The notes beneath the pieces are model-generated. The model did no database searches and was not told the origin of the DNA. It saw nothing but the letters and a program-made list of their open reading frames with translations. Shown here piece by piece: positions 54,127-59,743 of a DNA stretch of 64,000 nucleotides. The stretch is from Bacteroidia bacterium (GTDB lineage Bacteria; Bacteroidota; Bacteroidia; SpSt-205). The stretch covers positions 17,094 to 81,093 of the forward strand of contig JBCNVG010000029.1 of assembly GCA_039630325.1 (NCBI GenBank), read 5' to 3'. Numbering within the stretch: the stretch's first letter is position 1; each line of letters starts with the position of its first letter. The position numbers and the translations under genes are program-made.

Positions 54127-57100
54127 TTAGTGCTTCAGCAAACGAGCCCTAACCTCTCCCACCGATGGAGACACTGCCACCAGCGTATAAAATCCTGCTG
54201 AAACTCCCTGTAAAGACAATTGGTACAAGCCTCCTTGAGAAAAGGTCCACTCTCGCACCAGTCGTCCTGTGGCTTCGTACAGATAAAGGCGCCAGTGGCC
54301 TTCTGGAAGGTTCAAATAAAGAGCATCATGGGCAGGATTAGGATAGAGTCCAATAGGAGAGTGGGCATTGTAGAGGGCTGTGGGCGTTTGCGGTTCAGTC
54401 CGAAGGACAGTAATAGAACGGCTAAGGCTGTCTCGGCAGTTGAAATTAATAGCTACGAGCGTGACGGTATAAGTGCCAGGTTGAGTATAAGCATACGAAG
54501 GGGAAATACTCGTGCTAGTATCTCCTGTACCGAATCGCCAGATGTACTGGGTGGCACCAACGGAGGTATTAGTGAAGTATACGGTGCCACCGCCTGCATT
54601 GAGGTCTACTGGATTGGGAGCGGCGGTGAAGTTCGCTTGGAGGCCTAATGTAGCGCAGTTCCAGTGGACTTCTATTTCCTGAACGGCGGTATCACTACAC
54701 AGGCCATTGCTTACGGCGAGGACGATCGGGAATCGACCAGCTCGGGTGTAGGTATGGGTGGGATTAGCTGTGCCGCTAACGGGGGCCGATCCATCGCCAA
54801 AATTCCACCATCGCTGAGTCGGTACAGGGGTGCTCTGGTCTGTAAAAGTAACGGGCTGTCCTACCTGCGCAGTAGCTGGTGCCGAAAACTGGGCATTTAT
54901 AGGAGAGCCTAAAGTTATTGTCACGCTATCAGCAGCCGTACATCCTGCGGAGTTTTGAGCGATTACTTTGTAGGTGCCAGAAGTTGTAGCATTGAGCTGG
55001 CATCCTGTACTCGGGAGAGGATTATTATTCAAAAACCACTGACAGGTTGCTGCTTGAGGACCTGCATCCAGAGTGACAGAGGGGGCGCACAGAGCCTGGT
55101 CAGGACCGAGGTTCACGCTAAATCTGCTATAGCTTACCCGAATGCTATCTATACCAGTGCAGCCCGATGAGTTACTTACCAGCACGGTATAAAGGCCATC
55201 TTGCGTCGCCAAGATAGTTTGGGTAGTAGCTATGGCTACACCATTGAGAGTCCAGAGATACTGATTGCCAGGAAAGCCTGCGTCTAATAGAGGAGGAGAG
55301 GCTCCTGCGCACAGAGTCAGGTCAGGGCCGAGGTTTACAGGGATACTGGGAAGCACTTGGAGATTGAAAGTATCTCGTCCGTTACACCCACCAGGATAAG
55401 ACACCTCTACGACATACTGCCCTGCTGTACTGGCAGGATGAGAGGTGGTATTAGTAGCTATGATGTTGCCATTATAGTACCAGGTAATGGTCGCGCCGGG
55501 AAAGGTATTGATAGAGAGGGTTACGGGAGGGTCATTTTGGCAGCGGAAAGTATCGGGAGGTAGGGCAGGCTGAGGAGTGCTTACGACATAGACGAGGAGG
55601 CTATCCCAAGGGGAGGTTCCGCAGCAATTAGTAGAGACGCGGAGCTTCACCCAGTAGGCGCCAGGGGCGGAAAATGTCACAGGAGGGGGATTTTGCGCTA
55701 AGGACGAAGCGGGTGTGCCCCCAGGGAAGATCCATTCATAGCCATCAGCGGCCACAGGTGTGGAGAATGAGATGGGTGTACCTATGCAGGTAGTTAGATT
55801 AGAGGCTTGAATCTGAGGTATAGGGGTTCGACGAGTGATAAGAATGAAATCGGCGTAGGAATAAGGCAGACCATCGACCAGAAGGGTCGGGGTTTTGGCT
55901 CCATCGGATGGATAGAGTACGCTACCTGAGGAGGAGGTAAGGGCGACTGGGTCACCTCCTGTATTCCAGACGAAGTAAGAGCCTGAGGCACTGGTAGAGA
56001 GGGAGACAGGCTGATAAGTACACGAGGTTACATTATCCACGAGTATGGGCGGTTCAAGAGGATTGTACCCATTCTGGACAATAACGGGATAGACTCCTGG
56101 GGCGGGGTGCTCATAGAGGGTATAAGCTACGCCTGGCGAGCCATTTCCACCACGTCCACCATTGCCGCCGCGTCCGCCATTGCCGCCGCGTCCGCCAGCG
56201 CCGCCTTCGCAGCCAGCTGCATTGCCGCCATTGAGCAATCGATCGTTTCCTGGGGCTCCGCCGAGACCGCCCGCTCCGCCGAGGCCGCCCGCTCCGCCAA
56301 GTCCAGCGGCCCCCGGCCCCCCAGTGGAGAGCCGACAATCTTTGATTAGACCGTTTGGTCCATTAGCCCAGATGAAAATGGCGAAGCTACCTCCCCCTGC
56401 CGTCCCGCGCGTGCCTTTGGTACCGCGCTGTCCGCCTTCGCCCCCTCCGCCTCCGCCGCCTCCTGGACTATTCCAGTCGTAGGTGACTCCATTGAAGCCA
56501 GGGATACAACCGACGCTTCCCCCCCCGCCTCCGCCGCCACCGCCACTCCCATCTGTCCCATCTGTCCCGTCCGTCCCGTCCTGCGGTACGAAATACCCCC
56601 CTGTGAACTGAGCTATCCCATCCTGTCCATTTTGCCCGTCTTGTCCATCGGCACCAGGTTGGCCGTCTGTACCCGTATGATCAGGTTGGCTGAAATGCGT
56701 AGGGCAGTTATTGAAAAAGTTGATAATGTCGGTGGCATTGAGCCCATTTGAGCAGTAGCAGAGGCCAGGCTTGCCTATGCCGCCTGCTCCGCCCCCAGGT
56801 CCATTTCCAGAGGTGCCATTTTGCCCTCCTGGGGCTGAGATTACGCTTGGGTCACAAAGACTACAAAACAAGCAGTTCGTGCCAGTGCCGCGGGCTCCCC
56901 CATTGCCCCCGGCTCCTCCCGCTCGCGCTCCTCCTGACCAGCTACTCCCGCCTGCTCCGCCGAGGTTGGTATAAGGAGGAGTCGTCGGATCACATCGTCG
57001 GCAGCCTAAACCGCCTGGTTGACCAGGAGCGCCGGCTGCCCCATTCACACCCGGCGTGCCATTAAGGCCATCTCCCCCCTTTCCTGCATGGACCTTACAC

Positions 57101-57579
57101 CGAGCTATGGTATAATCCCGACAGCCATTTAGATATATGCCATAAGTAGAGATACCAGGCCCTGGGGCATCAGCCACTTCTATCTCCAAATCTTGTAATC
57201 GGAACCCGCGTCGACCCACCGCTACAATAGCCGTCAAGCGAGGTGGCGCTGGCTCAATCCCCACCGCGCTCCGTACCAGTTTCGTAATCGCTGTATTTGA
57301 CTTCTTCCAGCCCTGGGCTGGGAGGTAGCCCCCTTCAATAATCACGCTGTCTATGGGCAAAACAATCGGAGCAGTCAAAGTGTAGGTTCCAGCGGCTAAC
57401 CGCAAATACCGCGCCGAGGGCGATATGAGAGATAAGCCATAAGTAAGATTGGCCGGATTGGCGCGGGTGCCAGCAGTACCGCTGCTGGCACCAGAGGGAG
57501 AGACATAGATGATACCGCATTCCTGAGCCGATGCTATTACTACATACAAGCCCAGAGCAAGCCATCGAGATAACGCCAT
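54127..57579 (-). CDS. Giant secreted T9SS cargo protein: N-terminal beta-helix-like region, collagen-like Gly-rich tracts, multiple PKD/Ig-like domains, type-A C-terminal sorting domain. 1150 aa.
   Basis: Signal peptide. GGxGGxGG tracts. Repeated Ig-like modules of about 90 aa with conserved Cys/Trp spacing. C-terminus …LYPNPAHDALYLNL…YTLVAV…RLLKH matches the T9SS CTD. Confidence 0.75.
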   Translation of the reverse strand: MALSRWLALGLYVVIASAQECGIIYVSPSGASSGTAGTRANPANLTYGLSLISPSARYLRLAAGTYTLTAPIVLPIDSVIIEGGYLPAQGWKKSNTAITKLVRSAVGIEPAPPRLTAIVAVGRRGFRLQDLEIEVADAPGPGISTYGIYLNGCRDYTIARCKVHAGKGGDGLNGTPGVNGAAGAPGQPGGLGCRRCDPTTPPYTNLGGAGGSSWSGGARAGGAGGNGGARGTGTNCLFCSLCDPSVISAPGGQNGTSGNGPGGGAGGIGKPGLCYCSNGLNATDIINFFNNCPTHFSQPDHTGTDGQPGADGQDGQNGQDGIAQFTGGYFVPQDGTDGTDGTDGSGGGGGGGGGSVGCIPGFNGVTYDWNSPGGGGGGGGEGGQRGTKGTRGTAGGGSFAIFIWANGPNGLIKDCRLSTGGPGAAGLGGAGGLGGAGGLGGAPGNDRLLNGGNAAGCEGGAGGRGGNGGRGGNGGRGGNGSPGVAYTLYEHPAPGVYPVIVQNGYNPLEPPILVDNVTSCTYQPVSLSTSASGSYFVWNTGGDPVALTSSSGSVLYPSDGAKTPTLLVDGLPYSYADFILITRRTPIPQIQASNLTTCIGTPISFSTPVAADGYEWIFPGGTPASSLAQNPPPVTFSAPGAYWVKLRVSTNCCGTSPWDSLLVYVVSTPQPALPPDTFRCQNDPPVTLSINTFPGATITWYYNGNIIATNTTSHPASTAGQYVVEVSYPGGCNGRDTFNLQVLPSIPVNLGPDLTLCAGASPPLLDAGFPGNQYLWTLNGVAIATTQTILATQDGLYTVLVSNSSGCTGIDSIRVSYSRFSVNLGPDQALCAPSVTLDAGPQAATCQWFLNNNPLPSTGCQLNATTSGTYKVIAQNSAGCTAADSVTITLGSPINAQFSAPATAQVGQPVTFTDQSTPVPTQRWWNFGDGSAPVSGTANPTHTYTRAGRFPIVLAVSNGLCSDTAVQEIEVHWNCATLGLQANFTAAPNPVDLNAGGGTVYFTNTSVGATQYIWRFGTGDTSTSISPSYAYTQPGTYTVTLVAINFNCRDSLSRSITVLRTEPQTPTALYNAHSPIGLYPNPAHDALYLNLPEGHWRLYLYEATGRLVREWTFSQGGLYQLSLQGVSAGFYTLVAVSPSVGEVRARLLKH
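56151..56313 (-). repeat. In-frame 18-bp tandem repeats in the Gly-codon region of the giant gene. Three copies encode GGNGGR and three encode (LGGAGG)-like units. A 9-bp (DGT)n repeat lies near 56548..56585.
   Basis: Direct reading: 56151-56168, 56169-56186 and 56187-56204 form one set. 56260-56277, 56278-56295 and 56296-56313 form the other. ccatctgtc/ccgtccgtc 9-mers occur at about 56548-56585. Confidence 0.8.
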
Positions 57580-57673
57580 GTTGGCAAATATAGGGATTTC
57601 ATATGTCCAGCTCTGGCCTACTTCCCTGGTAGACGAGGTTTAATCGGGATAAAAATTGTTTCTTTGCTGCGAT

Positions 57674-58534
57674 ATGAAACGGATAAGCACACTCGGTTTA
57701 GCAGCGCTTTCATTTGCGCTCATTATCGTAGGATGTAAGAAGAAAGACGACGACCATAGCCATGGCGATGGAGGTGGTAGCCCTATTCAAATGCGCTGGG
57801 TTAGCTTAGGTCATGGGCATGACGCTCAGGATAGGTATCATGTGGATTTAGAGGCTGAGCTTCCCGTAGGACAGGATACCCTTACGGAGGGGTATTATCG
57901 GTTTAGAGCGAAAATAATGCGAAATGGTAGTCTGTATGGAGGGAGTGATGTGAGGTTTTTGCCCATGATGTACATGACTGATCACAGTCACTCCTGCCCA
58001 ACTGAGCAGCCTATGGGTCCGAGCCAAGATGGCTATTACTATGGGGCGGCCTTCTTCATGATGCCAACGATGATGGGTCAGCCCTGGAAGATGCATGTAA
58101 AAATAGGTGCAACAGATAGTGTATCCTTTACCATTCAAGTCAATCCCCATCCTCGAGGCTGGGTGAGACGAGGTCGTCAGTTCGGTAATCCGAATAATCC
58201 GCGTTACCTGTACGAAATGAAACTTCCACGGGCGGGGGTCGGTGCTCAGGACGTCAGCTTCTATGTGTATAAGAGAGATATGGCCCAGCCAGCCACGGAT
58301 CCAGCAGCCTTCCCAGCGGCTACGAACATTACTCAGATAGATTTAGAAACGTGGATGCCCAGCATGAGTCATGGAGGCGGTCCTGGTACGCGAAGTGCCA
58401 TGCCTGTGCAAGGGAAACCCGGACGACTTGATGGAAAGGTAGACTTCAACATGAGTGGGGATTGGTGGGTGATTGCCACCTTCAAGGAGGGGAATAATGT
58501 GATTGGGAAAGATACGTTTGCGCTCGAATTCTAA
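57674..58534 (+). CDS. His/Met-rich lipoprotein, paralog A (ORF track starts 57656; likely start MKRIS…)
   Basis: Lipobox (LIIVGCKK). Conserved HxH…HSCP and Met-rich segments (MMYMTDHSHSCP…FFMMPTMMGQPWKMHV). About 45% identical to the next ORF. Confidence 0.5.
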   Translation: MKRISTLGLAALSFALIIVGCKKKDDDHSHGDGGGSPIQMRWVSLGHGHDAQDRYHVDLEAELPVGQDTLTEGYYRFRAKIMRNGSLYGGSDVRFLPMMYMTDHSHSCPTEQPMGPSQDGYYYGAAFFMMPTMMGQPWKMHVKIGATDSVSFTIQVNPHPRGWVRRGRQFGNPNNPRYLYEMKLPRAGVGAQDVSFYVYKRDMAQPATDPAAFPAATNITQIDLETWMPSMSHGGGPGTRSAMPVQGKPGRLDGKVDFNMSGDWWVIATFKEGNNVIGKDTFALEF

Positions 58535-58555
58535 GCATTAGATTTCTTAGACCTT

Positions 58556-58592
58556 GGAGCAGTCACCTCTGAGTGACTGCTCCCATTTTTTT
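58556..58592 (+). terminator. Strong rho-independent terminator between the two lipoprotein paralogs
   Basis: Perfect 11-bp stem GGAGCAGTCAC/GTGACTGCTCC, 6-nt loop, then caTTTTTTT. Confidence 0.7.
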
Positions 58593-58864
58593 ATGCTTCT
58601 ACGCTTCGTGGTTCGCAACTACAATCTCTCTTGGAAAAAATTTGAGCAAATAAATCTTTGCATACAGCTTTTCCACAAATGAATGTTTGAGGAGGCTAAC
58701 AGTGTCACTGGCTACCAACTCAGCTTTTAGAGCTTAGTCAATAGAGATAATGGCGTTTTGAAGTGTTTCTCTTACTCAGGTATAGAGGATGTAAGTTCAG
58801 CTATAGCACAGAGGCTGGAATGAGAAAGGCACATTTCTGAAAATTTTCTGTTATTTGTCGAACT

Positions 58865-59743
58865 ATGAGAAGAATACACTTATTTATATCGGTCCTCTGG
58901 GTCCTGACTGTCGCAGGATGTGAAGAGAAAGAACAGGCTTCCAATCAAGAAAACCAGGGAGGAGGGGCAGCTCAGACTTACTGGACCTCATCAGGTGTAG
59001 TGTTAGCGGGTAGTAATGGTAGTGCCTCGGGCGCGTATGTGGAAAGATTAGAAGTTGAGGTTGTGGCTGGGGTAAGTATGCCTACCGAGGGATATCACCG
59101 GGTTAGGGCTAAAATAAAGCGAGGTTATGACCTCTATGCAGGAAGAGATGTGAAATTTTTACCAATGATGTATGGGCATGATCATCCTGTACACAGCTGT
59201 CCGGTTGAGCAGCCTAATGGGCCAAGCGAAGATGGATATTATTATGGGGCAGTGTTTTTTATGAGACCAAATATGCCTAATCATCACTGGAAAATACACG
59301 TAATCATAGGCGAAAGAGACACTACGACCTTTGTCCTTGATGTTGCGCAGCATCCATGGAATGGTGTTAGGCCTGGGGATGATTTCACACCCATAGATAG
59401 CTTCTCGTACTTCTATGAGGTGGTGCCACTTAAATCTACGGATGGATTTAAAGATGCTGTTTTTCTCATTTATAGGCGCGATAGAAATCAGCCAGTAGTA
59501 CAGCCTTCTGCTTTTTTGCCAGCGAATAATATTACACAGATAGATCTCCAAGCTCGGATCCCTAATACAGGGCACAGCGTCGGTTCGGGTATTCACACTG
59601 CTACTCCTACCTCGGGCAGGCCTGGACGCTTTACCGCTAAGAAGGTATTTGACAAAGCGGGTTTTTGGGAGCTAATACTTACCTGCAAGGAGGGAGAAAC
59701 GGTGGTGTTAAGGGATACTTTGCACCTTATTATTGGAAGTTAA
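58865..59743 (+). CDS. His-rich lipoprotein, paralog B (lower GC than paralog A)
   Basis: Lipobox (LTVAGCEE). Shares blocks EGYHRVRAKI, FLPMMYGHDHPVHSCPVEQPNGPSEDGYYYGAVFFM, WKIHVIIG, NITQIDL, GRPGRF with paralog A. Confidence 0.5.
   Translation: MRRIHLFISVLWVLTVAGCEEKEQASNQENQGGGAAQTYWTSSGVVLAGSNGSASGAYVERLEVEVVAGVSMPTEGYHRVRAKIKRGYDLYAGRDVKFLPMMYGHDHPVHSCPVEQPNGPSEDGYYYGAVFFMRPNMPNHHWKIHVIIGERDTTTFVLDVAQHPWNGVRPGDDFTPIDSFSYFYEVVPLKSTDGFKDAVFLIYRRDRNQPVVQPSAFLPANNITQIDLQARIPNTGHSVGSGIHTATPTSGRPGRFTAKKVFDKAGFWELILTCKEGETVVLRDTLHLIIGS

Follow-up and report, generated by a model that had tools for sequence, protein, structure and literature searches.

We analyzed a 64,000-nucleotide stretch of Bacteroidia DNA (GenBank assembly GCA_039630325.1, contig JBCNVG010000029.1, positions 17,094 to 81,093 of the forward strand; hereafter, the window) and focused on two adjacent lipoprotein genes within it, paralog A and paralog B. 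For this pair and its homologs, we computed paralogy, domain architecture, the conservation and loss of putative metal ligands, synteny, selection, and gene neighborhoods. The two genes and the recognizable parts of A are as follows:

57674..58534, + strand: paralog A, a 286-aa lipoprotein with two YtkA-like domains, both Met-Met-His...Met sites intact
57674..57736, + strand: signal peptide and lipobox of A (MKRISTLGLAALSFALIIVG followed by C21), then a K/D/H-rich tether, CKKKDDDHSHG
57785..58168, + strand: N-terminal YtkA-like domain of A (aa 38-165; ligands M99, M101, H106, and M130; W138 invariant)
58181..58531, + strand: A's C-terminal YtkA-like domain (PF13115 on aa 221-267; ligands M228, M231, H233, and M260)
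58865..59743, + strand: paralog B, a 292-aa lipoprotein with the same fold as A, C-terminal site lost and N-terminal site remodeled

The protein encoded by A is identical to ABDH66_06140, from a metagenome-assembled genome (MAG) at NCBI, and that of B is ABDH66_06145. The mechanically called open reading frame (ORF) of A begins at TTG 57656, and the ATG at 57674 yields a canonical signal peptide. A and B shared 43% identity over 290 aa in BLASTP (E 3e-79), and each protein starts with a basic n-region that leads through a hydrophobic core to the lipobox (IVG before C21 in A, VAG before C19 in B). The two ORFs had originally been predicted to be paralogous lipoproteins, and our results bear this out, including every shared sequence block that had been quoted. 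The lipobox Cys, C21, is conserved in 93% of alignment A1. At least two acidic residues lie at positions +2 to +7 after the lipid-modified Cys in 52 of 61 members of the narrow clade around A; in the wider family, acidic residues come after this Cys in 83 of 122 members. The tether that follows this Cys is His-rich in the narrow clade (mean of 2.5 His, vs. 0.2 in the wider family). The mechanical ORF list also contains one antisense ORF inside each gene (57848..58150, - strand, 100 aa, in A; 59159..59596, - strand, 145 aa, in B); nothing suggests that either is a gene.

Domain architecture and Met/His sites

Although the original prediction did not recognize the fold of these proteins, Pfam assigned aa 221-267 of A to PF13115 (YtkA-like; 26.7 bits against a cutoff of 25.9), and most homologs of A carry a precomputed match to the same family. 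The N and C halves of the family alignment proved homologous to each other by hhalign (probability 95.9%, E 5e-9, with aa 93-144 aligning with 222-270). Thus, sequence comparison identifies A as a tandem of two homologous YtkA/CrdA-type immunoglobulin-like (Ig-like) beta-sandwich domains, the N-terminal of which is too diverged for Pfam detection. B scored 13.0 bits against PF13115, below the cutoff, and taken alone fails the family threshold. The AlphaFold (AF2) model of A had a mean predicted local distance difference test score (pLDDT) of 88 and a predicted template modeling score (pTM) of 0.80, with pLDDT above 90 in the region of the N-terminal domain. The AlphaFold model of B (pLDDT 79.5, pTM 0.75) has two domains with the same beta-strand order as A. 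The copper-resistance protein CrdA of Helicobacter pylori was both the best structural match and the only sequence-level match in the PDB; from sequence alone, the family profile matched CrdA entry 9ll2 with E 8e-5. PmoD (with A) and FixH (with B) appeared lower in the lists of structural matches. When Foldseek was run with the whole chain, the only matches were to tandems of the filamin, FN3, and antibody-like kinds.

Searching 5.8 billion proteins yielded 71 close relatives, all of them from Bacteroidia MAGs or metagenomes, and those that bear NCBI names are called "FixH family protein." We rejected this label: A and B gave no match to PF05751 (FixH/CcoH) at E values up to 1 and have a lipobox instead of a transmembrane anchor. 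Transmembrane helices hold FixH in the membrane, where it associates with cbb3 oxidase, and FixH is not known for Met/His copper sites. PF04314, the family of PCuAC with its H(M)X10MX21HXM motif, also gave no match at E up to 1, and NCBIfam holds no model for A, B, or the lipoproteins of the wider family. An exhaustive profile search gave 615 cluster representatives, 349 of them at E < 1e-10; of the best-scoring representatives listed, most were lipoproteins matched over their full length, 260-290 aa long and roughly 25% identical to A, for example one from Olivibacter. Pontibacter is another carrier of the wider family (P0223).

We measured conservation on a family alignment of 148 sequences, in which identity to A falls to about 21-25%. 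Few positions were conserved in at least 90% of these sequences, among them eight Met/His residues, namely M99, M101, H106, and M130 in the N-terminal domain and M228, M231, H233, and M260 in the C-terminal domain, and all eight were kept together in 142 of the 148. W138 and W264 were invariant. These Met/His ligands and the two Trp were the only near-invariant side chains with obvious chemistry, and the two ligand sets occupy equivalent positions of the internal repeat in the hhalign alignment. A hidden Markov model (HMM) alignment placed M228, M231, and M260 of A on Met54, Met57, and Met84 of the CrdA chain. With an apparent offset of 15 in the printed alignment, their counterparts would be CrdA Met69, Met72, and Met99, which belong to a set of five methionines that has been put forward as the Cu(I) sulfur cluster of CrdA (PMC9182242).

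Paralog B has retained the fold and altered the sites. Its signatures are M-G-H-R at the first site (M102, G104, H110, and R134, plus the new residues H140 and H141) and I-T-H-K at the second (I232, T235, H237, and K264). The ortholog of B in a related genome, P0019, is 66% identical to B and reads M-A-H-K and P-A-H-K. In both proteins, five of the eight ligands are gone, the distal Met of both sites has become Arg or Lys, and a His-His pair has been gained directly before the invariant Trp (PNHHW). B also lacks H47, H49, H56, W163, D263, and the His-rich tether. Clusters of His, Cys, and Met had been noted in both proteins as resembling periplasmic Cu(I) or other metal sites. For A, this holds up, given the PF13115 and CrdA matches, the invariant Met/His residues, and the copper-related neighbors described below. 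It does not carry over to B, which has lost most ligands and has no MMxxxMM motif (FFMMPTMMG in A, FFMRPNMPN in B). As for the other clusters noted, conservation of the Cys in HSCP does not extend to the wider family, and the HxH cluster (H47, H49, and H56) is specific to the narrow clade.

These changes do not look like the debris of a dying gene. B is an intact ORF in both species in which it was found (three assemblies or MAGs plus sequencing runs). Between B and its ortholog, the non-synonymous divergence pN was 0.189 and the synonymous divergence pS was 0.605, a pN/pS of about 0.3 that can serve only as a rough dN/dS, as synonymous sites are saturated between the two genomes. The pN of B is lower than that of the neighboring family 2 glycosyltransferase (GT2) gene (0.229) and 1.7 times that of A. 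On this comparison, B is under purifying selection and is not decaying. Sites have also been lost elsewhere: P0018 and a copy in locus L020 read MMHM plus NTQA, with the C-terminal site lost, and P0073 has lost the N-terminal site. One MAG, SKYB95, holds two unlinked copies, the site-deficient one at L020:3732-4544 and one with both sites intact at L013:6805-7677. Site loss following duplication therefore occurred more than once in the family.

Synteny, composition, and origin of the pair

The intergenic elements of the pair are the following:

57650..57673, + strand: promoter-like element preceding A (TAAAAATTGTTTCTTTGCTGCGAT); its TTTG occupies 57663-57666, 7 nt ahead of the ATG
58535..58864, no strand: spacer between A and B, 330 bp, AT-rich, GC 0.394
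58556..58593, + strand: intrinsic terminator after A, with an 11-bp stem, a 6-nt loop, and T7
58840..58864, + strand: promoter-like element preceding B (AAAATTTTCTGTTATTTGTCGAACT); its TTTG occupies 58854-58857, aligned with other upstream regions

A strong terminator had been predicted between the two genes, and the hairpin at 58556..58583 indeed has a perfect 11-bp stem and a 6-nt loop followed by C-A-T7. Its energy of -20.7 kcal/mol (z -4.7) was equaled by none of 200 shuffles. No equivalent was present in the 489-bp spacer between the orthologs of A and B in locus L008; this strong terminator is specific to the window's genome. We aligned six upstream regions, those of A, B, their orthologs A' and B', and two single-copy relatives. 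All six share an A/T-rich element with an invariant TTTG 7-10 nt before the ATG, indicating that each paralog has its own promoter-like element. We presume that this element corresponds to the Bacteroidota -7 box, TAnnTTTG, which it resembles. A sigma-70 promoter scan of the region was uninformative (three sites against 4.0 expected).

The composition of A is average for the window (GC 0.502; GC at third codon positions, GC3, 0.498). B has a GC of 0.458, which ranks at the 5.8th percentile among windows of the same length; at 0.399, its GC3 is below that of every other gene among the 54 tabulated (z -2.6). The spacer together with B falls at the 0.5th percentile for GC, and intergenic DNA in the window averages 0.439. 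A windowed GC check therefore upholds the observation that B and the spacer are more AT-rich than their surroundings, though the effect is modest in total GC, by which three other genes in the window are lower than B.

It had further been proposed that this contrast reflects different ages or separate acquisition and that the locus looks accessory. Both suggestions fare poorly against synteny. Loci L008 and L009, on two assemblies of another species, conserve the order RecG, a 1150-aa cargo protein of the type IX secretion system (T9SS), A, B, GT2, Obg, and Dxr; the pair is thus embedded in conserved gene order among RecG, Obg, and Dxr. In these loci, identity to the window's copy is 79% for A' and 66% for B', and B' shows the same contrast in composition (GC 0.435 and GC3 0.368, with neighbors at GC3 0.44-0.53). 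Synonymous sites are saturated between the window's genome and the L008-type genome (pS 0.7-0.8). As the low GC3 persists despite this saturation, the AT-rich third positions of B are best seen as a maintained property of the gene and not as the fading trace of an import. The 1150-aa gene (window 54127..57579, - strand), which is syntenic in L008, L009, and L010, encodes, besides PKD domains, a weak C-terminal sorting domain of the T9SS, and it contains a long Gly-rich GGxGG repeat block that raises GC to 0.62-0.67 around 56.0-56.8 kb.

In a neighbor-joining (NJ) tree, B and B' (P0019) were monophyletic in 100% of bootstraps and formed a long branch inside the shallow clade that holds A. Bootstraps placed this branch as sister either to P0008 (53%) or to A plus P0002 (22%), and P0008 is also the closest intact relative of B by BLAST (48.5% identity, vs. 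43% for A). The nesting of B inside a thermophilic Bacteroidia clade excludes a distant donor. For B, the tree and the syntenic loci are most simply explained by an old duplication with a burst of change after it.

Gene neighborhoods of the homologs

In the narrow clade, single-copy homologs 41-61% identical to A end a recurrent block of genes: a small transmembrane protein (IIa), COX2, COX1, SCO1, cytochrome c, a family 4 glycosyltransferase (GT4) on the opposite strand, and then the homolog. We found this block in L001-3/L017, L019, L021, and L023. The oxidase is of the ba3 type, with best PDB matches to 7DEG and to Thermus ba3 oxidase (1EHK/1XME), and its subunit II has an intact CuA motif, C-H-E-Y-C-G-S-A-H-Q-N-M. 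A 2.37-Mb contig retains a remnant of the arrangement (L004:5837-6675), which may be a decayed oxidase operon: COX1 is cut to a fragment of about 106 aa beside the homolog P0032, with cytochrome c and GT4 intact.

The 64-kb window contains no oxidase genes. A contig of sequencing run SRR28200752 (SRR28200752_8706; L109:7542-12051) carries COX2, COX1, SCO1, cytochrome c, and the opposite-strand GT4, with phosphoglucomutase in the slot after GT4. Its COX1, MEN3040478.1, comes from the same sequencing run as the window proteins, MEN3041096-MEN3041100, and has a close accession. Thus, the window's organism very probably has a ba3 oxidase cluster on another contig. The phosphoglucomutase fills the slot that holds the lipoprotein gene in relatives, which indicates that the lipoprotein gene moved away from the oxidase cluster in the window's lineage. 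We rejected L108 as the oxidase locus of the window's organism because it belongs to a different MAG, ABDH91. In an assembly of SRR28200759, the same oxidase cluster has SCO1 split into ORFs of 58 and 137 aa (L110:5242-5846), reflecting a frameshift or an assembly error.

The wider family keeps different company. In all 59 wider-family metagenome loci with at least 1 kb of downstream sequence, a TonB-dependent receptor gene lies directly downstream on the same strand. Among NCBIfam models, it best fits TIGR01778, the TonB-dependent copper receptor (E 9e-45, full length), at 154 bits, under the equivalog cutoff of 472 bits. In the 47 receptors of full length, the plug residues C106-x3-M110 and the barrel residues H289-x-M291 never vary, nor do three Met-x-Met pairs. 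These residues correspond to the CxxxM-HxM copper site of Pseudomonas aeruginosa OprC (Cys143, Met147, His323, and Met325). OprC has a methionine track as well (PMC8610252), and the conserved Met pairs of the receptors may echo it. In its layout, the pairing of lipoprotein and receptor genes resembles the BtuB-BtuG and SusC-SusD pairs of Bacteroidota; for OprC of the OprC/NosA type in Pseudomonas, no such lipoprotein partner is described (PMC8610252). CrtA of Bordetella was considered as a match for the receptor and set aside, as it belongs to a different receptor family and its account leaves lipoproteins unmentioned (PMC12914433). One wider-family locus adjoins nosL, nosD, nosF, and nosY.

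Many operons of the wider family open with a small protein of about 125 aa that has a transmembrane helix, the motif CxNKxxPxLxCxGKC, a C-terminal FHPP, and no Pfam family. Across many Bacteroidota metagenome contigs (L024-L105, e.g. L024:6461-9849 and L025:7001-9827), the small protein, the double-YtkA lipoprotein, and the TonB receptor form an apparent conserved three-gene module. A has the two-domain MMHM plus MMHM signature of the wider family, and B does not. The family of A appears to descend from, or to be the sister group of, lipoproteins tied in operons, as obligate partners, to OprC-type TonB-dependent copper transporters. In the window's clade, this linkage is lost: there was no OprC-like receptor in the window's 64 kb or up to 8 kb away from a homolog of the narrow clade, no small Cys-rich partner protein in the window or the narrow-clade loci, and no homolog of the partner gene in the spacer between A and B. 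In the literature open to searching, we found no account of the two-domain family or of a characterized member, its pairing with OprC-like receptors, its site-degenerate paralogs, or the three-gene module.

A putative copper shuttle, its remodeled paralog, and rival explanations

Based on the sites, the fold, the gene neighborhoods, and an analogy with CtaK, we favor, with some confidence, the explanation that A is an envelope Cu(I)-binding shuttle and that B is a remodeled derivative of an old duplication. CtaK (YtkA) is a Bacillus subtilis lipoprotein needed together with Sco for CuA assembly of heme-copper oxidase (PMC9145763, PMC13344008). Like CtaK and the YtkA domain of YcnJ, A has a PF13115 domain with conserved His/Met, and like CtaK it is a lipoprotein; CtaK acts with Sco, and relatives of A adjoin COX2, COX1, SCO1, and cytochrome c. 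The differences are also clear. A has two YtkA domains in tandem, its His-rich tail is N-terminal rather than C-terminal, its host is a diderm Bacteroidota, whose outer membrane may hold the anchor, its oxidase belongs to the ba3 and not the caa3 type, and B lacks most of the ligands. By its Pfam match, A belongs to the YtkA-like family, and in architecture it is not an ortholog of CtaK. PCuAC (DUF461) resembles A in its proposed job, Cu(I) delivery to Sco/CuA via a Met/His site, and is an analogue only, with no sequence relationship; PCuAC and CtaK are themselves unrelated proteins with the same role (PMC9145763).

In the mechanism we propose, A would be a lipid-anchored protein of the cell envelope, with a flexible His-rich tether after the lipid-modified Cys. 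Each domain would use its four conserved residues to present a thioether/imidazole Cu(I) site of the Met2-His-Met type, and A would pick up Cu(I) in the envelope and hand it on by ligand exchange. The probable recipient in the thermophilic Bacteroidia clade would be the CuA-containing ba3-type oxidase, reached via SCO1, which would make A the functional counterpart of CtaK. B would have arisen by an old duplication within the clade, most simply in tandem; it has a promoter-like element of its own and would be insulated from A by the terminator. It kept the fold and stayed under purifying selection while losing the C-terminal site entirely and two of the four N-terminal ligands, exchanging both distal Met for Arg or Lys, and gaining the His-His pair. 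In this form, B would no longer perform the ancestral two-site Cu(I) chemistry and may act as a metal-free partner or adaptor or have an altered, His-based specificity. We infer Cu(I) binding itself, the direction of transfer, the cellular localization, and the new role of B from these comparisons. A role for A in copper handling in general is likely; the specific route, in which A supplies the ba3 oxidase via SCO1, is put forward more tentatively.

Several observations weigh against this explanation. A and B adjoin no oxidase, SCO1, or TonB receptor in the window, and the COX linkage is confined to one family-level clade, with an opposite-strand GT4 in between, so that it could be inherited synteny rather than functional coupling. 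The Pfam score of A barely exceeds the cutoff, and that of B falls below it. The clustering of A's ligands in space would follow from the CrdA homology and the internal repeat and not from measured distances. The N-terminal site of B retains M102, H107, and H110 and gains two His, and B may still bind a metal. Finally, bootstraps split 53%/22% between the two candidate sisters of B, leaving tandem duplication of A in competition with the insertion of a copy from a close relative.

The main rival holds that A is a surface-exposed outer-membrane lipoprotein that captures copper and feeds an unlinked OprC-type transporter, serving uptake and not oxidase assembly. The operon of the wider family points to such a role: the TonB receptor is adjacent in all 59 wider-family loci with enough downstream sequence, the full-length receptors carry the CxxxM-HxM residues of OprC, and A conserves the same eight ligands as the wider family. 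The acidic residues after the Cys of A also resemble the Bacteroidota lipoprotein export signal, C-X-K-(D/E)2 (PMC5080379). However, the K-K-K-D-D-D of A puts Lys at +4, where K is fully absent from the experimental alignment of Capnocytophaga canimorsus (PMC5080379), and neither such a receptor nor the small Cys-rich partner gene accompanies A in the window or its homologs in the narrow-clade loci. We consider this explanation improbable on balance, though it is the most serious competitor. A bolder proposal is one that we regard as speculative and rather unlikely. Here, double-YtkA lipoproteins would be an undescribed "copper-catching" class of Bacteroidota whose ancestral task was to deliver Cu(I) to a TonB-dependent transporter of the OprC type, as part of a three-gene module with the small Cys-rich membrane protein, and that was re-purposed for the ba3 oxidase in the thermophilic clade. 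B would then be a conserved "pseudo-chaperone," with Lys/Arg in both former sites; it would bind no metal and partner or regulate A or the target of A, or it would have a new His-based metal specificity.

CrdA suggests another possibility, that A (and perhaps B) serves in copper resistance or sequestration and buffers excess periplasmic Cu(I) instead of supplying enzymes. CrdA (PDB 9LL2/9LL4/9LL5) has the same beta-sandwich fold as A and an aligned Met cluster, no other protein matched at the sequence level in the PDB, and Met-rich sites occur in resistance proteins of the CopC/PcoC type (PMC9182242). Unlike A, CrdA is single-domain and His-free, with an extended MMxEMPGMxxMxEM loop, and lies in a copper-resistance locus with efflux genes; the sites of A include His. 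Genes for efflux or resistance were absent from the window and from the homolog loci with listed gene content; in these loci, no efflux pump, CopA/CusCBA, multicopper oxidase, or copper-sensing regulator stood beside the gene, and the recurring neighbors are instead copper-consuming or copper-importing systems. There is little probability left for this explanation, and equally little for the separate horizontal acquisition of B from an AT-richer donor and its insertion beside A. The latter would account for the exceptional composition of B and its spacer, and for the placement of B closer to P0008 than to A in BLAST and in the NJ tree. On the other hand, the same tandem in L008/L009, with its low GC3 in B', means that any acquisition predates a split at which synonymous sites are now saturated, and a foreign composition would be expected to ameliorate over such a time. 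Furthermore, the position of B inside the clade excludes a distant donor, and long-branch effects can account for the P0008 placement. Least probable is that B is a decaying, functionless duplicate, or that A and B are Ig-like surface or adhesion proteins with no role in metal handling. B does lack five of eight family-invariant ligands and the Pfam threshold score, and the sandwich is a generic one that resembles only filamin, FN3, and antibody-like tandems over the whole chain. Against decay stand the intact ORF in two species, the pN well below pS, a divergence not above that of GT2, and the conservation between orthologs of the changes specific to B (HH before Trp, and Met to Lys/Arg). Near-invariance limited to Met/His ligands and two Trp across the 148 sequences would be unexpected for an adhesin.

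The passage of copper across the outer membrane and its routing to respiratory oxidases are poorly known in Gram-negative bacteria beyond a few Proteobacteria. The family described here provides a testable handle on copper import and routing, as it is widespread (349 clusters at E < 1e-10) and has two conserved sites of the Cu(I) type. Our analysis also corrects a misleading database name, "FixH family protein." The A/B pair is a natural experiment in which intact and dismantled sites are set on the same selected fold, and it may serve to separate the metal-dependent functions of this scaffold from its metal-independent ones.

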